Virus record (IMG/VR): IMGVR_UViG_3300032315_001401
Location: 124,018 to 188,017 of that record
Reading direction: 5' to 3' (one strand)
Source: a virus
DNA length: 64,000 nucleotides
The notes under the pieces were generated by a model. It was not told where the DNA came from. It did not search any database and worked only from the letters and a program-made list of their open reading frames with translations. Positions 1,085 to 20,492 of this stretch are shown here, piece by piece. Both the position numbers and the translations under genes were made by a program. Within the stretch, counting starts at the first letter, position 1; every line of letters begins with the position of its first letter.

Positions 1085-1305
1085 TTCTATAAAACCTTTT
1101 TTCGTTTTTATATAGGGAAAAAAATTTTTATAATGAGAGTAATAATTAGCTCGCTTCCGTAACACTTTGTAGGTTACAGGGACCCATCGATTTTATATAC
1201 GGGGGGGTTATCTTATAACGCGCCGCCGGCGGGGGCGGGCACAATACCCGGACCCCTGCCAAACACGAACGAATGGCACTGCCCCTCACGAACAACGCAA
1301 GGGGG

Positions 1306-1596
1306 TCAGGCACCCCGACGCTCCAGAGCAGCAGCGCGGCGATCGTTGCGGTACTGATCACGGGCACGGATCATCACTGCCTCAAGGTCAGCAACCATCA
1401 CGCTGCCCAACCCTGTGACGCGGGTGATGGTCAGACCCTTACCCGAACCAACGGCGTGGGACGAACCACCGGCAGGCAGATCAGAATCACGAACGGAACC
1501 AATAGCAGCACCCCGCCCGTGTTGAGAGTTACGGCTGAGGGTCTCGCCCTTACGGGGACCGCGACGGGGCAGGCGGGTGACGGTGTAAACAGTCAT
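1306..1596 (-). CDS. Hypothetical early protein (Arg/Gly-rich)
   Basis: ATG at 1596 (MTVYTV) just downstream of extended -10 at 1623-1628. Confidence 0.55.
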   Translation of the reverse strand: MTVYTVTRLPRRGPRKGETLSRNSQHGRGAAIGSVRDSDLPAGGSSHAVGSGKGLTITRVTGLGSVMVADLEAVMIRARDQYRNDRRAAALERRGA

Positions 1597-1645
1597 CGGT
1601 TCAGGGGGTGTCGGTTGAGAGTATTGTAGCAGGTCGGCGGAGGGG

Positions 1646-1858
1646 TCACCCCCATTGAGTGCTGCGCCACCCGCTGATGGGGCAGGGGGCAACGTCACCA
1701 GCAAGGGTCTCTGAATACTGGGCGGCGAGGGCAGCGGCAGGCACCCCCCAATGAATGTAGGCGGAGGGGCGGGAACCGTTCTTCAGTTGGTCAGCACGGG
1801 AGATCCACTTGACCTGACGGGTCGCGAGGTCAGAGCAGGCAGCAAGGGGGAAACGCAT
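1646..1858 (-). CDS. Hypothetical early protein
   Basis: ORF directly downstream of -10 at 1886-1891. Confidence 0.55.
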   Translation of the reverse strand: MRFPLAACSDLATRQVKWISRADQLKNGSRPSAYIHWGVPAAALAAQYSETLAGDVAPCPISGWRSTQWG

Positions 1859-1911
1859 CGGGTGTCGGTTGCGGTTGACTTTGAAATTCTACAGGGTCAG
1901 GTGGGCAGGGG

Positions 1912-2100
1912 TCAATACCCCAACCAGACCAAAAACTCACCGGCATCTACAGGTCCGAATTTGGCGGTCGTCCCGTAGTCGGTGCGGAAGTCATCCCAGA
2001 GGGAATGGTCCTTTGCTGCCTGGCAGGCGGTGCTCCAACGAATGCACCCGTTATCATCGGCGCAGTTCAGGAGCAGGGCAGGGAAGGTGGCGAAGGTCAT
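1912..2100 (-). CDS. Hypothetical early protein
   Basis: ORF directly downstream of -10 at 2127-2132. Confidence 0.65.
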   Translation of the reverse strand: MTFATFPALLLNCADDNGCIRWSTACQAAKDHSLWDDFRTDYGTTAKFGPVDAGEFLVWLGY

Positions 2101-2148
2101 CGGTCGGTGTCGGTTGACTTGAGAGTATTGTAGCAGGTCGGGAGGGGG

Positions 2149-2340
2149 TCAACCCTCCCACTCATCCTCTGGGGTCAGCACACAGACCAACGATTCCAGA
2201 TGGCAGCAGTAGCTGTAGTCCTTCCCATGATGGCGGACCTTCCACACTGGGGCACCAGGCAGGTTGGCAGTGTGGGGACTCATTTCAATTCGCTCCACAC
2301 CGTAGGGGGCAAGCATGACCATCGCTTCGGAGATGAGCAT
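2149..2340 (-). CDS. Hypothetical early protein
   Basis: ORF directly downstream of -10 at 2369-2374. Confidence 0.6.
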   Translation of the reverse strand: MLISEAMVMLAPYGVERIEMSPHTANLPGAPVWKVRHHGKDYSYCCHLESLVCVLTPEDEWEG

Positions 2341-2387
2341 CGGAGGGGGGGTTGGTTGACTTGAGAGTATTGTAGCAGGTCAGGGGG

Positions 2388-2549
2388 TCACTGCCCGTCT
2401 GTGTAGTCTCCGATGATGACCCCGTTGCAGCGGACCTGGGCGTACCCGTACTCCTCAGACAGGGAGAGGCAGAGGTCCCATGCGCGGTCCTCATCGGTGG
2501 TCGTGTTCTCCCAGGGAGCGGAAGGGCAGATAACGTCGTAGCGGGTCAT
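2388..2549 (-). CDS. Hypothetical early protein
   Basis: Start refined to MTRYDV because upstream ATG abuts the -10 at 2574-2579. Confidence 0.6.
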   Translation of the reverse strand: MTRYDVICPSAPWENTTTDEDRAWDLCLSLSEEYGYAQVRCNGVIIGDYTDGQ

Positions 2550-2618
2550 GAGGTCGTTTGCTTTGGTTCCCATAGTGTAAACCCCCCACCCGCGTCAGCA
2601 GGCAGGGGGTGTGCGGTT

Positions 2619-2759
2619 TCAGAATTGGACCTCCTGCAGGGTCGGGGCGTCAGCAGGCGCAGCATCCCCAGATTCAGCGGTCAGGGTCTCCAGAATCTGC
2701 AGCAGTTCGGCGCCATTAGCAGCGCGATTCAGCAGGGCAACGGCAAGGTCAGCGGTCAT
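2619..2759 (-). CDS. Hypothetical early protein
   Basis: Start refined to MTADLA; downstream of -10 at 2815-2820. Confidence 0.55.
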   Translation of the reverse strand: MTADLAVALLNRAANGAELLQILETLTAESGDAAPADAPTLQEVQF

Positions 2760-2825
2760 GGTTGAAATAGGGTTGAGGTTTGCTGGGCGTCTTTCAGGGC
2801 GCACCCGCTCCCGTATTGTATCAGG

Positions 2826-2987
2826 TCAGCGGGCGAACTGTGCCAGACTGCTGGGAGCGACGTGAGCAGGCGACCCGCAGGACCGGTAGAAGTCTACCAT
2901 GCTCTGTGCTTCCTCCAGGGTGGGGAACCACTGGGAGCGCCACTCGCAAGCGTTGTAGGGGGTCTGGTAGCGGACTTCGATTCGCAT
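2826..2987 (-). CDS. Hypothetical early protein
   Basis: Start refined to MRIEVRYQ; downstream of -10 at 3011-3016. Confidence 0.65.
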   Translation of the reverse strand: MRIEVRYQTPYNACEWRSQWFPTLEEAQSMVDFYRSCGSPAHVAPSSLAQFAR

Positions 2988-3054
2988 GGGGTTGGTTGCG
3001 TTGTGAGAGAATTCTAGCAGATCAGGGGCAGGGGTCAACCTGCCCCGTAGGGGG

Positions 3055-3234
3055 TCAGCGGATCACCTTGACCACTTCGCCCTTGTGGCGAATCACGATG
3101 GAGGTGAAGGAGGGGTGGAACCCCTTGGCGCTGCGAACGGCACCTGCCAGGGAGGTGCAGTGGGTCATGCAGGATGCTGCATCGGGGGTGGAAGCAGCAA
3201 CAACGGTGAAGTCGCGGGTCTTGGTGGTTGCCAT
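3055..3234 (-). CDS. Hypothetical early protein (59 aa, below ORF-track cutoff)
   Basis: Hand-translated MATTKTRDFTVVAASTP...EVVKVIR; downstream of -10 at 3259-3264. Confidence 0.55.
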   Translation of the reverse strand: MATTKTRDFTVVAASTPDAASCMTHCTSLAGAVRSAKGFHPSFTSIVIRHKGEVVKVIR

Positions 3235-3300
3235 GGGGTGGGGTTGTGAACTGAGAGAATTCTAGCAGGTCAGGGGGTCGGGTGTGACCCCCCAGCGGGT

Positions 3301-3561
3301 TTAGAAGTCGAACACGTCGCCGTTGATTTCAGCGCGGTTGACTTTAGGGTCGTCCCACTTCACACCGTCCGGGGTCTCTTTGGTGCCAAATTGATAGAAT
3401 GCCTCCAGCAGTTCTTCATAGCAGCAGACATCATTTTCCTGAATGAAGTTATGAATGCTCTCATCATTCTCAATCCAGAGCACAACATTCCAGGTCTCAT
3501 AATTGGTCCAACCGTTGTAGGTTTGGTCGGTGAGGCAGGTCTGGTAGGTAGTGGCAGGCAT
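3301..3561 (-). CDS. Conserved phage hypothetical protein (YNGWTNYETW family)
   Basis: YNGWTNYETWNVVLWIEND motif, widespread in phage early regions; downstream of dyad promoter. Confidence 0.7.
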   Translation of the reverse strand: MPATTYQTCLTDQTYNGWTNYETWNVVLWIENDESIHNFIQENDVCCYEELLEAFYQFGTKETPDGVKWDDPKVNRAEINGDVFDF

Positions 3562-3634
3562 TGGTTTGTCTGTGGTTGACTTGTTAATTGTAAGGGGTCA
3601 GGTGGGGGGTTGGTGCCCCCCTTGTGCCAGTTCG

Positions 3635-3820
3635 TCAGGCGGCACACAGGGCAGAGTCCATGCAGACCTCGCGGGTCTCCACCAGCACGTAGTCTACTGC
3701 AATCTGCTGCTCCAGCTCATGAGCGTAGGCGTCAGCAGCAGAGCGGCAATCGAACAGGCGAAGGGTGCTAAAGTCCTGCCCTTCATAGTCGGCACCAGCG
3801 ATGACAGCGTAGACTTGCAT
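3635..3820 (-). CDS. Hypothetical early protein
   Basis: ORF downstream of dyad promoter (-10 at 3848-3853). Confidence 0.7.
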   Translation of the reverse strand: MQVYAVIAGADYEGQDFSTLRLFDCRSAADAYAHELEQQIAVDYVLVETREVCMDSALCAA

Positions 3821-3896
3821 GGGTTGCTCCGTTTGGTTGACTTGTTAATTGTAAAGGGTCAGGGTGGGGTCTGTGGGGTGGTAGTGTGCCACCTTA

Positions 3897-4793
3897 TCAA
3901 CTGGCACACTGGAAGCGCCCGCTGTTGAAATTATGGTATGAAAAGACCTCACGGTTCACCAGTTTGAACATACCAAACTCATTGGTCATGACATAACCTT
4001 CAGCATCAATCCTCTCCTGCCCGATGTAAGCGGCAGGACCATCATTGCGGCACAGATAGAGACAATCATCTTTGATCGACTTTACCAGTGCCCACAATCC
4101 AAGCAGGTTAGGATCGCAGTCGAATTCAGTATTCACAACAGGACGATTCTCACGAATGCAGGCATTCAGTTGTTGCTTGATCTTTGCTGCCTCTTTATCA
4201 GTCACAAACTTCACCGCAAGTGCCATCACCCGTGCAAACTTGCAGACCTCTTCAACATCAGCGAACGATTCTTGCCCGTGCTGGATGTATGCTTGCGGTT
4301 TCACAAATTTGCAGTAGTGTGTATCAGTGATGATAAAGTTCATCGGGTGAGCAACAGCATCACGCAAATCATTCTCTGCCACGTAGACAGTGTGAGGGGC
4401 AACAATAATCTCCTGATAGACTACTTCAGGAAACTTGTAAGTGATCGTGTTGGGAGTATACTCATCGCTATCACCAAACCCAATAAAATCACCTTGAATG
4501 ATACCATTTGTGCGAGGAAGATAATCAAAGCAAGCGTGAAGAATACGCGCAACTTCACCCTGATAGAATGCATCAATCTCTTCATGATTGTGAGCGATAC
4601 GAATCTTTTTCTTGTTAAAGACCGCTTTGGTTCCTACAAAGAACTCACCGCAGGCAGGGTCAATACCCCAGACAATTGCAGGGGCACCATCAATCTTAAC
4701 GCTCAAGTTACCAGGATTGACGAACCAATCCAGAACAGAAAGGTCACCCGTGAGGATAGAATCTTCGGGGTGCTCAAGGTGGGTGTTTTTCAT
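3897..4793 (-). CDS. DUF6267-like protein, possible ligase/nucleotidyltransferase fold
   Basis: THLEHPED N-terminus and SVKIDGAPAIVWG (KxDG motif I-like); own dyad promoter (4800-4859). Confidence 0.6.
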   Translation of the reverse strand: MKNTHLEHPEDSILTGDLSVLDWFVNPGNLSVKIDGAPAIVWGIDPACGEFFVGTKAVFNKKKIRIAHNHEEIDAFYQGEVARILHACFDYLPRTNGIIQGDFIGFGDSDEYTPNTITYKFPEVVYQEIIVAPHTVYVAENDLRDAVAHPMNFIITDTHYCKFVKPQAYIQHGQESFADVEEVCKFARVMALAVKFVTDKEAAKIKQQLNACIRENRPVVNTEFDCDPNLLGLWALVKSIKDDCLYLCRNDGPAAYIGQERIDAEGYVMTNEFGMFKLVNREVFSYHNFNSGRFQCAS

Positions 4794-6044: not shown

Positions 6045-6760
6045 TTGTCTCCAAAGTTGTTAGAAAGAAAGTCTTCAAGTTCAGTGAGTTTGCTCTCACT
6101 CATGTTCCAAATATATTCACTGATAACAGTATCCAAAAGGTCAGCATCTTCACGACACTTCTCTTTCAAAAACCACTCAAGTTCGGTTCGGTTAGTCATC
6201 TAAACAGTGGCGGTAGGTTTGATTCAGGCGAATGAGAATGTCATCCCAGAACTCTTTGTCCTCATCATCATTGTATTGGTTGTTATCTTCAACCAAACGA
6301 ATCAGATTGTTGAGGTCATCAGGGGTGAGATAGTTCATTCAGCACCCTCCAACATTTCGAGCAGAGTATCATAAAGCACGGCAACATCTGTGCCCACAAT
6401 CTCATTCAGTTCTGCTTCAGATTCATCATCGGCAAACGATTCAGTGTGAAACTCAATGAACCTACGAAGAGCATCAATCTGCTCAAAGGTGAGGGTAGTT
6501 TGAGTCATTTACGAAGAGGAGAATTGTAGTAACGACGAAAAGCAGTGAGAAGAATAATGCCCGTTGAAACAACACCAACCAAACCAAGGAAGGTGACAGC
6601 ATCTCCAGTGAAAGTGTAAGTGTCAGGATTCATTTCAGTAATCATAATTTGCGTTCAGGTATTCATTGACATCGAACTTCTCATCACGAAGTTCGGGAAT
6701 GTCAAGGTCGAAGATCTCCCCGGGAGCATCTTGAATCTCACTCCAGAGTTCATCAAACAT
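6041..6760 (-). CDS. Five translationally coupled micro-ORFs (6041-6199, 6192-6338, 6335-6508, 6505-6645, 6635-6760)
   Basis: Hand-translated 41-57 aa ORFs with ATGA-type overlaps; four acidic, one with a TM segment (6505-6645); downstream of dyad promoter 6785-6844. Confidence 0.6.
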
Positions 6761-6839
6761 GGTCTGTCTCTCAGGGACGAATGTAATTTATCAGGGTTTG
6801 GTCAGGGTCGCAAGGGGTCTTGTGCCACCTTGTCAACTG

Positions 6840-7028
6840 TCACATCATATCACCCTCAGCGATCAAACCCATGATCTCCCTTGCCGTAGCAGCAAAGTTA
6901 ATGTGATCTTCCAAACCTTCTTTGGAGTATACTTCAAAGAGATCAGTTTCCCGATAAGTATCAAGAATCAACTGGCAAGCATCATAAAGTGCTGCGACGT
7001 TATGTTGACGGGTTGGGAAGGAAATCAT
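6840..7028 (-). CDS. Hypothetical early protein
   Basis: ORF downstream of dyad promoter 7051-7110. Confidence 0.6.
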   Translation of the reverse strand: MISFPTRQHNVAALYDACQLILDTYRETDLFEVYSKEGLEDHINFAATAREIMGLIAEGDMM

Positions 7029-7110
7029 CGAATTTCTCAGCGACGAATGTAAATTATCAGGAATTTACCCCCAGCGCAAGGGGGTTTGTGCCACTTCGAG
7101 AACTGTCACA

Positions 7111-7263
7111 CTAGACGAAGATATCGACCTCTTTGATGCTAACATCGACATCTTCGTCACCTTCGAGTTCTAATACTCTGCGCCAATTAATATCCTCAAG
7201 ATCTAAATCATCATAACACTCTACATCTAGAGTAACACGTACTAGGCGTTTGTGTGCTATCAT
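7111..7263 (-). CDS. Small acidic protein (50 aa)
   Basis: Hand-translated MIAHKRLVRVTLDVECYDDLDLEDINW...DIFV. Confidence 0.6.
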   Translation of the reverse strand: MIAHKRLVRVTLDVECYDDLDLEDINWRRVLELEGDEDVDVSIKEVDIFV

Positions 7264-7269
7264 GATATA

Positions 7270-7410
7270 TTATGCATAATGCCTGTATGCTAGGTCCTGA
7301 TAATCATGTGTGTCTCGTGCATAATCATCATCTAGATCTAGTGTATAATGCTCATCTAGATCCGCGTAATCGTTCGTGTATGTGTAGTCGAAATCGTAAT
7401 CGTCGTACAT
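7270..7410 (-). CDS. Asp/Tyr-rich micro-protein (46 aa)
   Basis: Start refined to MYDDYDFDY; 14 D, 1 E, 10 Y; downstream of TATAAT at 7442-7447. Confidence 0.55.
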   Translation of the reverse strand: MYDDYDFDYTYTNDYADLDEHYTLDLDDDYARDTHDYQDLAYRHYA

Positions 7411-7412
7411 AG

Positions 7413-7627
7413 CTCGTCGAGATCGTGTGAGTGACTTGTGTATTATAGCATAGAGCTCGACGAGATTGCAATAGGTATGCACATATCTCGACGAGATTCG
7501 TATGGTAGTATATATGAATCTAGATGCTTCTAGATGGGTCTCGACTAGATTATATGAGAATCTCGTAACATAATGCCTCGTCGAGATTCTATCATACTTT
7601 CATAAGAATGTCAAGTCTCGTCTAGAT
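7413..7627. repeat. Six quasi-palindromic CTCGWC(G/T)AGAT repeats
   Basis: Copies at 7413, 7456, 7487 (within ATCTCGACGAGAT 7485-7497), 7540, 7577, 7617. Confidence 0.9.
7586..7614 (-). promoter_or_regulatory. Sigma70-type promoter TTGACA-N17-TAGAAT
   Basis: -35 at 7614-7609, -10 at 7591-7586, 17-nt spacer. Confidence 0.8.
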
Positions 7628-7663
7628 TTTATGAGGGTCTGTGAATTTTTATGGGGGCGGGGG

Positions 7664-7692
7664 TTGACAAACTGCGAGTCTTATGCTACGCT
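7664..7692 (+). promoter_or_regulatory. Plus-strand sigma70-type promoter TTGACA-N17-TACGCT with TGn extension
   Basis: -35 7664-7669, TG at 7684-7685, -10 7687-7692; no downstream ORF. Confidence 0.65.
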
Positions 7693-7785
7693 CGCTTAGC
7701 TCACAAGACCTGGAGGGGTTTATAAGCATTTAAGACACAAAAACCCGGACACATTTATAAGCACTTATAAGCATTTAAGACAAAG

Positions 7786-7826
7786 TTTTCCACACAAATA
7801 CAATACTTTTCCACAGGTTTTCCACA
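7786..7826 (+). promoter_or_regulatory. Three DnaA-box-consensus 9-mers TTTTCCACA
   Basis: Exact copies at 7786-7794, 7807-7815, 7818-7826, followed by AT-rich tract about 7828-7890. Confidence 0.7.
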
Positions 7827-8005
7827 ACTAAACAAAATACACTTATATATTTTTTAATACATTTTTTTAATTAATTTAACCTTTTTTATCCTTTCTTTCT
7901 TGTGCTGCTGTCTGTGCTAAATGAATATTTGTATGAAGACGTTGTAGATTTGCATAACGATTATGCTGACGTGTGATAACAGAGTTTGCTTTAATTCTTG
8001 CAGCA

Positions 8006-8266
8006 TTAACATTTGACTGCTGTGATGTAGGAATCTGTTCCATGAATTGAAAGAACGTCTTCATTGCTATACTTAAGACTGTAATGATATTTAGAATCTG
8101 GTTGATTATCATTCCAATGTCTTACCACTCCTGCAATAATAAAAGCATTAGTAATCAAATAAGATGCAAAGATGAATGTTCGAATCAATGCTATCTTATC
8201 TGACTCCTTATTACATTTGGATGCTTTCTCTCCTAATGCTTTTGCCCACAGTCTCCACAACTTCAT
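8006..8266 (-). CDS. Conserved cyanophage membrane protein
   Basis: WRLWAKALGEKA...IALIRTFIF...TNAFIIAGVVRHW with a hydrophobic helix. Confidence 0.65.
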   Translation of the reverse strand: MKLWRLWAKALGEKASKCNKESDKIALIRTFIFASYLITNAFIIAGVVRHWNDNQPDSKYHYSLKYSNEDVLSIHGTDSYITAVKC

Positions 8267-8451
8267 TTATCAGATTCTTTTAAAAGTTTAACTTGATTCC
8301 ATTGACTCTTATACACCAACACACAAGTATCATTCACTCTGTAATCACCAACTCTTACGCAGATTGAAATGTATTCATCACAGATAAATCGGACTTCACC
8401 AATCCAATCCCTATACTGAACAACAATACCTTCACTGAAAGTTGGTCTCAT
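8263..8451 (-). CDS. Hypothetical protein
   Basis: ORF track; ATGA overlaps with neighbours. Confidence 0.6.
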   Translation of the reverse strand: MRPTFSEGIVVQYRDWIGEVRFICDEYISICVRVGDYRVNDTCVLVYKSQWNQVKLLKESDK

Positions 8452-8732
8452 ACAAATGCTGCTGTTAATGGAGTTTGTTTCAGTTGCATTGCTGTATAAG
8501 GAGTTGTGTCTTTTGGATTTATACGCTTACCAATGGTCTTACTATTAATGGGGGAGAAATACTCTTTTGTTTTGGTGTTGTAAAATCCCCAGATACATTT
8601 AACAGGTTTGCCAAGATTATAATCAAAGCACCGATCATAACAAATCCAAATCGCGGTGACATTGCGCTTGAAATCTTCATATTCATAATGCATTCCTTTT
8701 GGTGCTTTGTGAGGAAATTCAATCGTTGTCAT
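8448..8732 (-). CDS. Conserved cyanophage hypothetical protein
   Basis: Start refined to MTTIEFPHKAPKG; IWGFYNTKTKEYFSPINSK motif. Confidence 0.65.
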   Translation of the reverse strand: MTTIEFPHKAPKGMHYEYEDFKRNVTAIWICYDRCFDYNLGKPVKCIWGFYNTKTKEYFSPINSKTIGKRINPKDTTPYTAMQLKQTPLTAAFV

Positions 8733-8879
8733 AAACTGCACGAAGATACTTGGGATTGGTGCCGGCAGCAACATAGTGTTGGAGCATTGAGTCACATTGC
8801 TCCTTTGTCAGTTTCTTGGCATCTTCCTCAATCAGTTCCCAACCATGAGAAAACAATTCTTCAATACGATACAGTTGTG

Positions 8880-9110
8880 TCATGTGGTAAATGCCTCCAG
8901 AATACCAGAGTCATACTCTTCTTGCAATGCAAACTTTTGAGCGTTGATGATTCTTTCCATAATGCGATCGGTATAACGATCATCAAACTGTTTTTCATCT
9001 GCCAGAAGAGTAAATGCTTCGGTGTCAGATTCTGCAATCAGATTAATCAGACCACCATATTCACTGGAAGGAAACGGAACCCAGTAGTCTACAATGTAAA
9101 GATACTTCAT
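8880..9110 (-). CDS. Conserved cyanophage hypothetical protein
   Basis: YIVDYWVPFPSSEYGG; host-like promoter upstream. Confidence 0.65.
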   Translation of the reverse strand: MKYLYIVDYWVPFPSSEYGGLINLIAESDTEAFTLLADEKQFDDRYTDRIMERIINAQKFALQEEYDSGILEAFTT

Positions 9111-12318: not shown

Positions 12319-13320
12319 TCACTGATTCAAAGAAACAACACCACCATCAGGATCTACATCCACAATTTGAGAAGGACGAACACCAAACTCAAAAGGAGTC
12401 CAGTTACGATCTTCTTTCAATTTGAGAGCGCAAAGTTTTACAGCATCCCACAACTCCATCAATTCATCTTTTGTAGAATCAATGATTTCAGTTGCCTTGT
12501 CTGCTTTTTTGCCACTAGGAATATACAAGTGAACTTTAGATCTCCTACCTTCCGCAACATCTTTCAAAATGTGGGAGAAATTGCGAGGAACATATGTTCC
12601 ATTCGGTTCAGCACAAATAATGCGTCCAGCAAAACCTTCTTCATCAATTTTACCACCAGAGGTATATCCTTCAGCAGCAAGATATTCTTCTGCCTCATTA
12701 CAAGTAAAGGTGCGAAGACTTTTATCTGGATAGGATTTACTGTGAATTTTCTTAACAATTCCAGTCACTTTTTTCTGTTCAAAAGTATGAGGAATAGAGT
12801 TCACCCAATCACGAATTTCATCTTTTGAAACAAGATGATCTTGACGATTGACCCAATTAAGACCACGAGTCACAAAATCTTCATCTGTAGAAGATTTACT
12901 TGCAGGGTGACTATTTGCGCCCAGACCAATCTCATCAAAAAGATCTTCCAGAGTATAACCGTCGTTAATTTCATAGACATCAAATGCCCAAGCAACTTGT
13001 CCACGACGGGTCAGGGCACGAAAACGAGTGAAACCATCAATCAGTTTCAAAACTCCTTCAGCATAAGTAACAATAGGGGGAAGTTGATCGTAACGAATAC
13101 CACACTCAAATTCACCATACAGGTTTTCCGTGTTGATATTGTCAGTGCCACCAGAACGAGCACGATTTTTGATTGTCTTACCACCAACATCAATATTGGA
13201 CAGATCTTCTACAATGGTAGTTTTGTAGGTTCCAGTGCGAAACTTCCTTCGTTTTTCCACAGAAGGAAGACGATTTACGTCAGGAACTTCACAAATGCTA
13301 ATAGGGGTGTGTGTAGACAT
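12319..13320 (-). CDS. ParB/Srx-like domain protein
   Basis: LPPIV...LKLIDGFTRFRAL (ParB N-terminal DGxxR motif); start refined to MSTHTP. Confidence 0.65.
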   Translation of the reverse strand: MSTHTPISICEVPDVNRLPSVEKRRKFRTGTYKTTIVEDLSNIDVGGKTIKNRARSGGTDNINTENLYGEFECGIRYDQLPPIVTYAEGVLKLIDGFTRFRALTRRGQVAWAFDVYEINDGYTLEDLFDEIGLGANSHPASKSSTDEDFVTRGLNWVNRQDHLVSKDEIRDWVNSIPHTFEQKKVTGIVKKIHSKSYPDKSLRTFTCNEAEEYLAAEGYTSGGKIDEEGFAGRIICAEPNGTYVPRNFSHILKDVAEGRRSKVHLYIPSGKKADKATEIIDSTKDELMELWDAVKLCALKLKEDRNWTPFEFGVRPSQIVDVDPDGGVVSLNQ

Positions 13321-13390
13321 AATAAGTAATAAAATGCAAACTGCAGGATTAGATTGAGTGTTTGGCAAATTGCCTTTTCAATCTCCAAGT

Positions 13391-13438: not shown

Positions 13439-14107
13439 TCACATAAAGGACAGAACGCTCTCGGTTTGGTTGTGTATCCTTTCTTGTGTCATTTGGAAAT
13501 ATTCTGGATTCATTTCAACACCAATAAAGTTTCTACCACACTGTTTTGCAGCAACACCAATTGCACCACTTCCCATACAAGGATCAAATACAGTGTCACC
13601 AATGTTTGAACTTGCCTCAATCAATCTTGTCATAAGTTTAACTGGCTTGGGTGTTGGGTGATCTTTATATCTCTCTGTTGCACAACGCCAGACAGCAGAT
13701 TTACAGTGCTCATTGAACACTGCTCCCGACTTTTTGGCAAACACACAATTCTCTATACTGGACAACCATATATGTTGTCCGTTCATTGGAGAAGGATTAG
13801 TTTTCTCCCATATACAGTGCCTCACAGATAAACCGTGCTCGATCAATCGGTTGCGGATATGTGAGACCTGAACTGAACCACAAAAAATATAAATGCTCCC
13901 GTAAGTCACGCGAACAACTTCATCGATAAAGTTGTCAAGTGGAAATGTAATAATGTCTGCGTGACTTTTGTCAAGATTTCTCAATCCACCACTCTTACGA
14001 TTTACCTCATCATATGGTATATCTGTAAGAGTAAGCGAAATGCTCCCATCAGCAAGTGACGGGAGCACATTCATACAATTATCGTTATATAATTTTACTT
14101 CACTCAT
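13439..14107 (-). CDS. DNA methyltransferase, N4-C/N6-A beta class
   Basis: Motif IV LTDIPY, HPTPKP, motif I FDPCMGSG, FIGVE. Confidence 0.9.
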   Translation of the reverse strand: MSEVKLYNDNCMNVLPSLADGSISLTLTDIPYDEVNRKSGGLRNLDKSHADIITFPLDNFIDEVVRVTYGSIYIFCGSVQVSHIRNRLIEHGLSVRHCIWEKTNPSPMNGQHIWLSSIENCVFAKKSGAVFNEHCKSAVWRCATERYKDHPTPKPVKLMTRLIEASSNIGDTVFDPCMGSGAIGVAAKQCGRNFIGVEMNPEYFQMTQERIHNQTESVLSFM

Positions 14108-17082: not shown

Positions 17083-17565
17083 TTATAATTCAACAATTGT
17101 ATCTCTTTTAACATCAATGAATAAAAATTCCATCGATTCATCTGAAAGATTTCCACCGTCATGAATATTATTCATAACATCATATACCTGAACAATACCC
17201 TCTTTCCAATATATTTTTTCGCCCATCCAAGTCATATAGCATTTTTTTCTGTCTGGTATAGTTAAAGGTATTTGAATTCTTTTGTAAGGTTCTCGATAAA
17301 TGTTCGGATCTTTATGTGCTATCAATATAGTTCCTGGTTCAAACAAAGAATATCCAGAATATAATATACTATCATTTTGATGTATTCGAAATATTTCATC
17401 TGTCATAAATTTTTTTCGAATTAAAATAGTTTTCGAAATACTTTTCAACCAATAATGTGGTATAAACTTATTACAATACCCATTTGTAGTTGGAGCTTTT
17501 TTAGTTGGAAAACTAGTTATCTTTGCCCACTTATATAAAGTTTGCAAATCATTTTGACTGACCAT
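17083..17565 (-). CDS. Asp/Asn beta-hydroxylase-like Fe(II)/2OG oxygenase
   Basis: PGTILIAHKD (HxD), RIQIPL, distal H in NNIHDGGN. Confidence 0.7.
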   Translation of the reverse strand: MVSQNDLQTLYKWAKITSFPTKKAPTTNGYCNKFIPHYWLKSISKTILIRKKFMTDEIFRIHQNDSILYSGYSLFEPGTILIAHKDPNIYREPYKRIQIPLTIPDRKKCYMTWMGEKIYWKEGIVQVYDVMNNIHDGGNLSDESMEFLFIDVKRDTIVEL

Positions 17566-18286
17566 AATATTTCGAAAAAGGATTATTCGGATAAGTTCTA
17601 TAAAATTTAACTATAGTTCTTTCATTATTTAATTTAATTTTTATATGAAAGAAAAAATCATCTTCCAAGTAATTAATAAATTTTTTATCATAAAGATTTA
17701 TTTTACTTTGATCAATATCAAAATGATTTAATAGAATATTTTTTATCTTATAAAAATTTTCTTTCGTTTGAAATGGAAATATTTCTATATTAATGGAATT
17801 ATCAATAAAATTTCCAATCTTGTCAAAATCACCAGCAATCCATACATCATAATATATATTTTTGAAATATTTAATAATTTTAATTGTATCACTAAAAAAT
17901 TTTGATTTAAAAGATTTATATGTATTTAAATAAAATCCACATTTAAAATTACTTTCAAATGGAATTTTACGTGTAAAATAAAGAACGGGAAAATTTACAT
18001 TAATATTAAAAAAATTTAAAGTATCTTTGTCTAAGTATTCATTTGGACCTTTACTTAGATAAGAAATATGAAAATAATCACCATCAGATGTAGTATTTGA
18101 TGACGTAATATTGCACTCATATTTTGATAAGTCCAGTTTTGGACATAAATTCAATAGTTGATTTTCTATTTTTTTTAAATTAGATTTCTGAGGAAAATTA
18201 TTTCCAAATTTATCAACACAAAAATGATGAGAAACATGATTGCTACCCTCTGTAATCTCTTTTTCAAACATTTTGTATCTTATCAT
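17549..18286 (-). CDS. Unknown protein, paralogue 1 of a tandem pair
   Basis: Co-linear similarity to 18290-19060 over the full length (PVLYFTRKIPFE, IVKFYRTYPNNPF identical). Confidence 0.75.
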   Translation of the reverse strand: MIRYKMFEKEITEGSNHVSHHFCVDKFGNNFPQKSNLKKIENQLLNLCPKLDLSKYECNITSSNTTSDGDYFHISYLSKGPNEYLDKDTLNFFNINVNFPVLYFTRKIPFESNFKCGFYLNTYKSFKSKFFSDTIKIIKYFKNIYYDVWIAGDFDKIGNFIDNSINIEIFPFQTKENFYKIKNILLNHFDIDQSKINLYDKKFINYLEDDFFFHIKIKLNNERTIVKFYRTYPNNPFSKYYGQSK

Positions 18287-18289
18287 AAC

Positions 18290-19060
18290 CTAATAGTTTT
18301 TTAGAAAGAATTGCATTGCAGAATATTGCAAATATTGCTGCAAAAATGGATTATTTGGATAAGTTCTATAAAATTTTACTATTTTACCATTATTAGTTAT
18401 TTTTATTTTTATATAAAAATAAAACTTATCAAGACTATAATTTTCAAACTTTTTATCATACAAATCAATTTTTTCTTTTTTAACATCAAAGTTTTTTAAC
18501 AAAATTTCTTTAATTTCATAGAAATTTCTTTTTGACTGAATGGGAAGTATTTCTATATTAATACTATTATCAATAAACTTCCCATCAAACGTAAAATCAC
18601 CTGCTAAATGCCCACCGGTTTTTACATTATTAAACAAAGAAATAATTTCAACAGTTTCATTAAAAAATTTAGATTTAAATGTTTTATAAGTGTCTAGATA
18701 AAAACCACACTTAAAAGTTTCTTCAAATGGTATTTTTCTGGTAAAATAAAGAACAGGAAAGTTAACGTCAATTTTGAAAGATTCTAAAATTTCTTTGTTT
18801 AAAAACTTTTTATTGGGATTAAGAGGATCAGTCACATAAGAAATATGAATATAATTATTTGGAGATGTAGTATTTGATGATGTTATAGTGCATTCATAAT
18901 CATATTTTGATAAGTCAAGATTGATACTAGATAATTGTTTTTCAAGAATATACTGTTTGGATTTTGGGTGAAAATGATTTGCAAATTTATCTACACAAAC
19001 ATGAGATTCAATATGATTACCTTTGGTGATTTCCTTTTCAAATAATCGATATCTTATCAT
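18290..19060 (-). CDS. Unknown protein, paralogue 2 of a tandem pair
   Basis: Co-linear similarity to 17549-18286. Confidence 0.75.
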   Translation of the reverse strand: MIRYRLFEKEITKGNHIESHVCVDKFANHFHPKSKQYILEKQLSSINLDLSKYDYECTITSSNTTSPNNYIHISYVTDPLNPNKKFLNKEILESFKIDVNFPVLYFTRKIPFEETFKCGFYLDTYKTFKSKFFNETVEIISLFNNVKTGGHLAGDFTFDGKFIDNSINIEILPIQSKRNFYEIKEILLKNFDVKKEKIDLYDKKFENYSLDKFYFYIKIKITNNGKIVKFYRTYPNNPFLQQYLQYSAMQFFLKNY

Positions 19061-19758
19061 TTTGAAAATACCTCAGAATGATTTTTACCCTTAATAACTT
19101 TCTTATCAGATCCATAATAAATCCAAAATGTACCAGAGTACCTAATACCAGAAGTAACGGGTTTTACTTTATGATAAAACATCCAGTTTGATGGAGAGAT
19201 AATAACATCGCCAATTGAAGGACGATAAGTTTTATTGCACGAAGCAAAATGCAACTCACCTCCAGTATACTCGTTGTTATCATTTAAGTAAACATTGCAG
19301 GTTAAAATATTTTTTCTTCTCATAAACCACATAGGAAATATCTCTTCAATGATATCATCATAATGATACTTAAATTCGGATTGATTATTATATCTTCTTA
19401 CAATCATTTCTGAAGGATGAAGATTTTTGTTCCCATAATATGCCCAATTAAAACCTCTAACTCTTTCAGAATATTGTTTTAAACCTTTAGTTAAAGCTTT
19501 ATTTTTGATACTTCCAATGATCTCAATATCAGGATCAAAATAAGAATCTGTTTTATCGTTTAATAAACCATCAGTATAGGGAGCAGACTTATCTCTTTCA
19601 CCATTTGAGTTTAAATTATGAATGAGTTGCTCACATTCATTTGGATTAATAAAAGACTTTAGATACAAAATATGATCAGATAAATTTAATAAAAACTTAT
19701 CTTGATCAATTTCATTCTCAATTGAATCTACATTAGTAGATATTTTTAAGTTTTCCAT
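19057..19758 (-). CDS. Fe(II)/2OG oxygenase, prolyl-4-hydroxylase-like
   Basis: HYD...YLND..YTGGELHF...HKVKPVTSGIRYS. Confidence 0.88.
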   Translation of the reverse strand: MENLKISTNVDSIENEIDQDKFLLNLSDHILYLKSFINPNECEQLIHNLNSNGERDKSAPYTDGLLNDKTDSYFDPDIEIIGSIKNKALTKGLKQYSERVRGFNWAYYGNKNLHPSEMIVRRYNNQSEFKYHYDDIIEEIFPMWFMRRKNILTCNVYLNDNNEYTGGELHFASCNKTYRPSIGDVIISPSNWMFYHKVKPVTSGIRYSGTFWIYYGSDKKVIKGKNHSEVFSK

Positions 19759-20492
19759 TATTTTTTAAATACGAATGTTGAAAGTCCAACACCAGATAAA
19801 ACATTTTTTAAATTTCTTTTTAAGTATCTAGAACTTATTTCTAAAGTCTGAAGGTGTTTGGTTTTTTGATTTTTTTGAATCGTAGATAAGTTATTTAACC
19901 AGTAATCAAGGGTTGGTTCAAGAGCATAATCATAATGATCTTCAAAATAGATTAAATCAAAATTGTGAGATTTAAACATGTCGATCCATTTATCTTTACT
20001 ATAAGTTTTCATTAGAAAATTATTTAAGTATTTTTCACAATGAGAAATATCAGTTTTTAAATAATAATCTCTTACAATAATTTGATTTGAAGATTTTGAA
20101 AGTTGGGTTAGAACACTATCAGGTTGATATAAATGACAAAATGATTCAATAAACACTATTGAATCATACACCTGATTAAAATTATAGTCAAGTAAATCAC
20201 AAAGTATTACATTTTCAGATATGTTTTCTTTTACATATTCATATTGACGTTTTGAGTTTGTAATTGAAATAACCTCACAACCCAAATCTTTTTGAATTAC
20301 TTTTGCTGGTCCACCCCAACCACATCCACAATCTAAAATTTTAGAATTGGGTTTGAGGAATTGATAAAGATGTTGAACTGCATTATACATTATATCACCA
20401 TCTCCCCACCCAACATGATAGTGAAGATCCTCACCTAAAACTTTTTTCCATAATTCTGGATCTGTATCAGAATAAAAATCTTCAATTTTCAT
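19758..20492 (-). CDS. Class I SAM-dependent methyltransferase (small-molecule/lipid type)
   Basis: LHYHVGW, ILDCGCGWGGPA, IVFIESFCH. Confidence 0.85.
   Translation of the reverse strand: MKIEDFYSDTDPELWKKVLGEDLHYHVGWGDGDIMYNAVQHLYQFLKPNSKILDCGCGWGGPAKVIQKDLGCEVISITNSKRQYEYVKENISENVILCDLLDYNFNQVYDSIVFIESFCHLYQPDSVLTQLSKSSNQIIVRDYYLKTDISHCEKYLNNFLMKTYSKDKWIDMFKSHNFDLIYFEDHYDYALEPTLDYWLNNLSTIQKNQKTKHLQTLEISSRYLKRNLKNVLSGVGLSTFVFKK

Follow-up and report, generated by a model that had tools for sequence, protein, structure and literature searches.

The DNA analysed here, hereafter the window, is the last 64 kb (positions 124,018 to 188,017) of the 188,017-bp viral record IMGVR_UViG_3300032315_001401; all positions below are counted from its first letter unless another locus is named. 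The source phage is a T4-like cyanomyovirus (Kyanoviridae) whose DNA matches were all Synechococcus and Prochlorococcus myoviruses, the closest cultured relative being the freshwater Synechococcus phage S-SRM01. An initial annotation had singled out the largest gene-free gap of the window as an origin-like control locus, and the list of open reading frames (ORFs) confirms that the 465 bp at 7411-7875 are the largest ORF-free gap within the 64 kb. The gap runs from the start of a 46-amino-acid (aa) ORF (7270-7410) to the stop of one of 78 aa (7876-8112), and the genes on either side are on the minus strand. A tRNA scan found none within the gap, and an Rfam search with E values up to 1 gave no match in 6500-9000. 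Judged from its sequence, the locus is a genome-unique, lineage-conserved noncoding module made up of words that resemble protein-binding sites, a promoter that serves no ORF and an AT-rich element. We describe these parts, their conservation in related phages and the case for the module as a candidate replication origin.

Palindromes, promoters and repeats in the gap

Six CTCGWCKAGAT sites, at 7413, 7456, 7487, 7540, 7577 and 7617, form an array at 7413-7627 with start-to-start distances of 43, 31, 53, 37 and 40 bp. The full palindrome is aATCTCGWCGAGAt, of which 7485-7497 is a perfect copy. With up to one mismatch allowed, the palindrome pattern had 10 matches against 1.5 expected, a number reached in 0 of 100 shuffles, and neither the exact CTCGWCKAGAT nor the 8-mer core TCGWCGAG occurs elsewhere in the record. 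All six sites of the initial annotation are thus where it had placed them, and they are far from what chance would produce.

By scanning IMG/VR for two palindromes 15 to 45 bp apart, we found relatives of the locus on at least 120 contigs, with arrays of three to nine ATCTCGWCGAGAT palindromes that lie mostly on one strand at a spacing of ~30 to 45 bp. In 696 distinct copies of the palindrome, conservation was confined to the 13-mer aATCTCGWCGAGAt and the flanks were random. The palindrome is therefore a self-contained dyad site for a dimeric protein, as opposed to a promoter core. The idea that it forms the core of a repeated promoter was rejected because the 696 copies showed no conserved −10 or −35 element at a fixed distance, and identification with the early-promoter element reported for the cyanomyovirus Syn9 is disfavoured, Syn9 having no copy of the motif. 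A scan of 185,579 cellular genomes for palindrome pairs returned single two-copy matches in high-GC taxa, with no cyanobacterium among the matches listed; these are consistent with chance or with coding sequence and give no sign of a host array.

On the right, the array is followed by an outward promoter, P(+), which reads TTGACA-AACTGCGAGTCTTATGC-TACGCT with a 17-nt spacer (7664-7692, plus strand), is preceded by a run of G residues (7652-7663) and has no ORF downstream. It carries a TGn extension and, with its weak −10 (TACGCT), is absent from the list produced by the consensus scan. Nevertheless, it was kept, spacer included, as cTTGACAAACTGCGCGTCTTATGnTACGCT on the same strand and within 200 bp in 66 of 91 arrays. 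P(+) is unique in the record and is one of 3 plus-strand TTGACA-N16-18-TAnnnT sites, compared with 26 on the minus strand. Back to back with it stands a leftward sigma70-type promoter, TTGACA-17-TAGAAT with a TG extension (7586-7614, minus strand), which fits 11 of 12 consensus positions; the pair predicted by the initial annotation is therefore present at both places, the plus-strand member having the weak −10. A second leftward promoter-like site, TTGCAA-18-TATAAT, again with a TG extension, lies between palindromes (7442-7471, minus strand) and fits 10 of 12 positions.

The palindrome at 7577-7587 overlaps the −10 and the start region of the leftward promoter at 7586-7614. A consensus leftward promoter was found inside the array in 23 of 65 loci, with a palindrome either on its −10/+1 region or in its spacer. 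In 16 of the 23, the promoter stands 48 to 53 bp from the −35 of P(+) with a palindrome over −10/+1, as in the window, and in others a palindrome fills the spacer of the promoter instead. The initial annotation had counted the palindromes among the parts of an origin; they are indeed present and conserved, but their positions on the leftward promoter are those of operators, and a protein-binding array with a regulatory or architectural role is a better reading of the six than a set of origin iterons.

Downstream of P(+) are a conserved leader, CGCT(T/A)A..TCACAAGAC..GGAGG (7693-7719, plus strand), which was delimited by alignments, is unique in the record and reads CGCTnAnnTCACAAGAC..GAGG in relatives, and then the iteron-like TTATAAG(C) repeats, TTATAAGCA, at 7720, 7755 and 7765 (region 7705-7777, plus strand, 28-nt units), just as the initial annotation had listed them. 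Related loci have between 0 and 8 TTATAAG copies, and even near-identical phages do not agree in this number. The predicted fold of the P(+) transcript was no better than that of shuffled sequences (z = −0.82), and a search for intrinsic terminators at the gap found none on either strand. A structured small RNA from P(+) is unsupported on these grounds and by the lack of an Rfam match.

Three exact 9-mers, TTTTCCACA, follow at 7786, 7807 and 7818 (7786-7826), each a perfect cyanobacterial DnaA box on the P(+) strand, with spacers of 12 nt and 2 nt. Their starts are 21 and 11 bp apart, which puts their centres ~two and ~one helical turns from one another. As the initial annotation had noted, all three fall within 41 bp; they are 3 of the 8 TTTTCCACA copies in the record. 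What stands out is this local triplet of perfect boxes, not the looser pattern TTWTNCACA, which is unenriched in the window (13 matches against 13.5 expected). An A-rich junction, ACTAAACAAAATACAC (7827-7845, plus strand), which is partly common to other versions of the locus (ACAAAAnACAC), leads into a conserved AT-rich element with its core, TTTTTTAATACATTTTTTTAATTAA, at 7850-7874 (7846-7890, no strand assigned). This is the candidate site of DNA unwinding, and it adjoins the stop codon of the next gene, which is on the minus strand. The AT-rich tract already remarked on is real: A+T reaches 90% in 60 nt, among the highest 0.05% of the record's windows, and the element is unique in the record.

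The main rival to an origin is that the whole locus serves as a regulatory switch for early genes. On this reading the palindromes would be repressor operators on divergent promoters, P(+) would make a noncoding or antisense RNA or insulate the early operon, and the 9-mers would be transcription factor sites at which DnaA couples phage expression to the replication status of the host. A switch would accommodate the 23 of 65 loci in which palindromes cover the −10/+1 region or the spacer of the leftward promoter, the tight linkage of two small genes of early type to the array, and the fact that P(+) and the upstream minus-strand gene converge. DnaA is, moreover, an established transcription factor (PMC8203912). 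We nevertheless consider a switch rather unlikely as the explanation of the locus as a whole, because the right-hand gene varies, leaving no constant antisense target, and the P(+) RNA has no predicted structure, terminator or Rfam match; two further points against it emerge from the comparison of related loci.

Conservation of the module and its exchangeable cassettes

The module is present in more than 100 cyanomyovirus contigs in IMG/VR. Its order, comprising two tiny acidic genes, the palindromes with the leftward promoter, P(+), the leader, the TTATAAG repeats, three 9-mers, the junction and the AT-rich element, was constant in every locus examined, including those of the cultured phages S-SRM01, P-SSM5/P-SSM2 and Sf-CH8. 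Carriers in which the module sits in unannotated gaps are S-SRM01, P-SSM5/P-SSM2, Sf-CH8/CH5 and the single-cell virus AG-345-L05. Beyond the AT-rich element on the right, sequence and genes vary even between near-identical phages, and the 78-aa flanking ORF (7876-8112, minus strand), which lies outside the module, occurs in only 9 of ~120 related loci.

What is exchanged between phages is the set of 9-mers. Among 65 distinct modules, 12 had two or three T(T/C)CCACA sites, 37 were of a TTCTCA type and 16 were of other types, and none had both of the main types. The TTCTCA-type cassette (TTCTCAAT type) consists of TATTCTCAA, ~13 nt, ATTGATTCTCAAT, ~12 nt and TTATTGAGAAT in the orientation + + −, an arrangement more in keeping with a double-stranded DNA target than with RNA. 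A third type is exemplified by GATACT..AGTATC in P-SSM5 and Sf-CH8. All cassette types then lead into the same junction, which reads GAATGTTATAAAACAC or ACAAAAnACAC in relatives, and into the same AT-rich element (TTTTTTAATACnTTTTTTTAATTAAATTTAA in relatives), conserved in DnaA-box-type and TTCTCA-type loci alike.

The exchange is seen at close range in an alignment of the window with two relatives, L030 and L026, in which identity among the three is ~97% from the array to the leader, both promoters included. Beyond the leader they differ in the number of TTATAAG repeats and in a ~50-bp segment, which holds DnaA boxes in the window and L030 and the TTCTCA-type sites in L026; they reconverge at the junction and the AT-rich element and diverge again beyond it. 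In most relatives the position of the boxes is taken by another 9-mer cassette, which makes the DnaA boxes an exchangeable allele and not part of the core of the module. Conservation in related phages, one of the checks named in the initial annotation, holds for the module, in more than 100 contigs, but extends to the boxes in only about one-fifth of the modules. Judging by this pattern of conservation, the short words of the module that resemble protein sites are under strong selection, and ATCTCGACGAGAT and ATTGATTCTCAAT are candidate protein-binding words within it.

Two further observations concern the right half of the module. Sf-CH8 (1290-1720 of locus L486) has no CTCGWCGAGAT array, yet P(+), the leader, the AT-rich element and a GGATAGTATCC palindrome are all there, implying that the right half of the module can exist without the palindromes. 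In loci with the third cassette type, namely P-SSM5 (1740-1830 of L487), L009 (3140-3200) and L052, the AT-rich element has a minus-strand TATAAATA, the T4/cyanophage late-promoter consensus, which would read leftward through the module. The AT-rich element of the window lacks TATAAATA.

In the DnaA-box version, the boxes themselves are what is conserved. Across 13 distinct three-site loci, the 27 box positions were 97% identical in pairwise comparison, compared with 43% for the 12 nt upstream and 48% for the 30 nt downstream, the spacers were 11 to 12 nt and 2 to 3 nt, and every box lay on the same strand as P(+). Cyanobacterial DnaA has TTTTCCACA as its box, and in vitro work has demonstrated the binding (PMC4674748). 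Furthermore, the arrangement box-N11-13-box-NN-box was found in 119 of 185,579 species genomes, mostly of cyanobacteria. In a cyanobacterial oriC locus (L158), TTTTCCACA-12-TTTTCCACAggTTTTCCACAggcaaaaaacaaataac precedes an AT-rich stretch; in the window, TTTTCCACA-12-TTTTCCACAggTTTTCCACAactaaacaaaatacac precedes the AT-rich element, and the junction ACTAAACAAAATACAC resembles the GGCAAAAAACAAATAAC that follows the last box in L158. The contrast between boxes and flanks, together with the oriC-like spacing, supports the view of the initial annotation that these are real DnaA boxes.

The conserved basal unwinding system of bacteria consists of tandem boxes with an unwinding region alongside, and one of the DnaA homologues tested in that study was that of Synechococcus elongatus (PMC8287927). 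The gap between tandem boxes in that system is at most 3 bp; it is 2 nt in the window and 2 to 3 nt in the 13 loci. The module thus shares with bacterial and cyanobacterial oriC (PMC8287927, PMC4674748) the box TTTTCCACA, the 2-nt gap, a third box 12 nt upstream, the placement of all three on one strand, and an A-rich and then AT-rich tract downstream of the boxes. Unlike a bacterial oriC, it is viral, lies between small phage ORFs and not beside dnaA or dnaN, and has only three boxes. Because the boxes are of perfect consensus and stand in a host-type arrangement, binding of DnaA in vivo is likelier than origin function, and we think it probable that host DnaA binds the three boxes in the infected cell. 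A regulatory switch would leave unexplained why the boxes copy the spacing of oriC and why the AT-rich element always follows the three-site cassette.

DnaA boxes on a phage genome could also act as a sink for DnaA, in the manner of datA, with the boxes on replicating phage genomes titrating host DnaA and so stopping initiation on the host chromosome; the initial annotation had offered such a titrating decoy as an alternative. Three perfect, high-affinity boxes and the high copy number that phage genomes reach would suit this role, although three boxes are few. A sink would have no need of boxes whose position and strand are fixed relative to a promoter and an AT-rich element, nor does it account for the fact that boxes are present in only about one-fifth of the modules and unrelated sites occupy the same position in the rest. 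The decoy thus gained no specific support, the fixed geometry and the alternative cassettes being unexplained by it, and we regard it as improbable.

Tandem boxes as such are common in viral DNA. Of 123 places in viral contigs with tandem TTTTCCACA, 118 lie outside this module, many of them in unrelated viruses, so DnaA boxes in viruses are not new in themselves. Outside the module, TTTTCCACA-N2-3-TTTTCCACA is carried by over 100 further viral contigs (L374-L485) that vary in G+C content; these may represent other phage or plasmid-like origins or host contamination. No description of DnaA boxes in a cyanomyovirus was found in the literature searched, and relative to that literature their presence in a module of a T4-type phage is new.

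The small acidic genes and their surroundings

The two genes on the left of the gap belong to the module. The first gene of leftward transcription from the gap, ORF-A (7270-7410, minus strand), encodes a 46-aa protein rich in Asp and Tyr and has homologues at 62 of 64 loci. These are 42 to 60 aa long (L011-L129) and follow the pattern MYDDYDLDYTY...DLDEDYARD..DY..LAYRHYA, in which the N terminus (MYDDYD.DYTY) and the C terminus (DYARD..DY..LAYRHYA) are conserved and the length between them varies in frame. The DLDE motifs in the relatives' ORF-A are encoded by GATCTCGACGAG, the same word as the intergenic palindrome, read in the frame GAT CTC GAC GAG. The array therefore runs on into ORF-A, with the coding sequence and the binding-site array overlapping, and it might be that ORF-A is a DNA mimic or that the palindrome array arose from the gene.

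The double use of this word could be taken to mean that the repeats are functionless products of chance, of slippage or of a decaying DLDE-coding gene next to them, and the variable number of TTATAAG copies would agree with such an origin. Conservation across more than 100 divergent contigs in the midst of random flanks, together with the shuffle statistics for the palindrome, makes this very improbable indeed.

The second gene of the leftward operon, ORF-B (7111-7263, minus strand), encodes a 50-aa acidic protein of phrog_12516 (PHROG E value, 1.6e-16), and its homologues adjoin the module in 59 of 64 loci. An alignment of the homologues gave the conserved core KRxVxVTLDIxCYDDLDLExIxW, the N terminus being a basic, strand-like KRxVxVTLD segment. 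Neither ORF-A nor ORF-B matched a Pfam family at a meaningful score, and an AF2 model of ORF-B (pLDDT, 83) had no fold match in the PDB, ribbon-helix-helix proteins included.

These genes bear on another account of the array, in which the palindromes form a centromere-like or architectural site, comparable to parC, that is bound by a small protein encoded next to it, with the rest of the gap serving as the promoter region of that protein. As in parC/ParR-like arrays, the repeats overlap their own promoter, and four to nine palindromes at 30 to 45 bp adjoin tiny conserved genes. Against this account, ORF-B lacks any Pfam or PDB fold match, that of ribbon-helix-helix proteins among them, and no partition ATPase is encoded within 4.5 kb, as far as the gene clusters there were examined. 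We also know of no need for partition in lytic T4-like phages, and we hold a centromere-like role to be quite improbable.

Farther from the module, the window has an island of ~60% G+C at 1200-4000, in a genome of 35 to 40% G+C, with a run of very small ORFs. A few kilobases from the module, a 349-aa protein of unknown PHROG phrog_27790 (12319-13368, minus strand) adjoins a DNA methyltransferase (phrog_67, E value of 1e-58; 13439-14107, minus strand). An island of very low G+C content (17 to 30%) extends over 17200-20000 and beyond and contains several minus-strand ORFs of 230 to 260 aa; its composition suggests a horizontally acquired block.

The module as a candidate replication origin

Taken together, the fixed order of promoter, repeats, three-site cassette and AT-rich element leads us to propose, with a probability of roughly one-half, that the locus is a modular lytic replication origin coupled to early-operon control in T4-like cyanophages (Kyanoviridae). 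More tentatively, and with some doubt, we suggest that a constant chassis of P(+), iterons and AT-rich element takes up swappable ~50-bp cassettes that set the initiator, and that the cassette of the window is a miniature host oriC core through which host DnaA would start phage replication or time it by the DnaA-ATP state of the host. The initial annotation had proposed a hybrid origin that recruits host DnaA. A conserved locus of origin type with real boxes is indeed present, but the boxes are exchangeable and the origin function is one that we infer.

In the mechanism envisaged, host RNA polymerase would fire P(+) at 7664-7692, and the transcript, with neither an ORF nor a predicted fold, would cross the TTATAAG repeats and the three 9-mers into the AT-rich element ~160 nt downstream. 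This transcription might open or prime the AT-rich element, as in the R-loop origins of T4 or in the transcriptional activation of ori-lambda. The three-site cassette would load a protein that melts or marks the origin; in the phage of the window this would be host DnaA, as the cassette reproduces the box-12-box-2-box and A/T-rich core of the cyanobacterial oriC, and in sister phages a different factor would bind the TTCTCAAT-type or GATACT-type sites. A dimeric protein on the six ATCTCGWCGAGAT palindromes, over the leftward promoter, would control the pair of tiny acidic early genes and might organise the locus as well.

Known origins offer partial parallels. In T4, oriF and oriG consist of a promoter and a downstream unwinding element with an R-loop primer, and oriE consists of iterons with the small RepEA and RepEB genes; T4 origin promoters are MotA-dependent middle promoters, and T4 origins are not known to use DnaA or to carry DnaA boxes. 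The module is like these origins in belonging to the same type of virus, in having a promoter that runs into an AT-rich element without an intervening ORF, and in its repeats and adjacent tiny early genes. It differs from oriF and oriG in that P(+) is of the host sigma70 type (TTGACA −35) and not MotA dependent, and there is no sequence similarity. Cyanomyoviruses lack both motA and asiA (PMC2984593). For lambda, PMC3985674 and the references it cites describe DnaA boxes downstream of pO that are footprinted by DnaA and stimulation of the transcriptional activation of ori-lambda by DnaA. The module shares with ori-lambda the promoter of a short noncoding transcript, the downstream DnaA boxes, the iterons and the AT-rich tract, but the lambda iterons lie inside the O gene and O and P recruit DnaB, whereas no O- or P-like genes occur here. 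Theta-type origins such as RK2 oriV, P1 oriR and that of pSC101 combine iterons, DnaA boxes and an AT-rich region, and the module resembles them in bringing direct repeats, host DnaA boxes and an adjacent AT-rich tract into one compact noncoding locus. Unlike them, it has no adjacent gene for a Rep-type initiator and resides in the genome of a lytic T4-like myovirus, its DnaA-box set is an exchangeable allele, and the conserved unit includes an outward promoter.

Several observations weigh against an origin. T4-type phages are known to initiate replication without DnaA, and most relatives lack the boxes, so DnaA is not essential to the module. No initiator-like gene was found within 4.5 kb, the small ORFs have no replication annotation in Pfam or PHROG, and in the gene clusters over the same distance no flanking gene correlated with cassette type. 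Syn9, a model cyanomyovirus, has neither the palindrome nor ORF-B. The −10 of P(+), TACGCT, is weak, and the DnaA-trios (NAN) beside the boxes, of which the basal unwinding system has at least three within 16 bp of a box and for which the window offers AAA CAA AAT after a 3-nt gap and the other DnaA-box loci offer GAATGTTATAAAACAC, are not clearly conserved. Cumulative GC skew over the whole record, another line of evidence named in the initial annotation, was monotonic, without an inflection, and hence uninformative, giving no signal of an origin; GC skew in T4-type genomes follows transcription. The recombination-dependent replication set of T4 is complete in cyanomyoviruses (PMC2984593). 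The only statement on initiation in cyanomyoviruses found in the literature searched is the prediction of a single theta origin for Syn9, reported in PMC2984593.

T4-like cyanophages are among the most abundant viruses in the ocean, and for the start of their DNA replication the module provides a concrete candidate origin in cultured phages (P-SSM2/P-SSM5, S-SRM01 and Sf-CH8), and the natural swaps of cassettes between phages already act as specificity controls. If DnaA is used in this way, the T4 paradigm of replication independent of the host initiator would be broken, and phage replication would be tied to the cell cycle and energy state of the host, which would be relevant to the dependence of cyanophage infection on light and nutrients.

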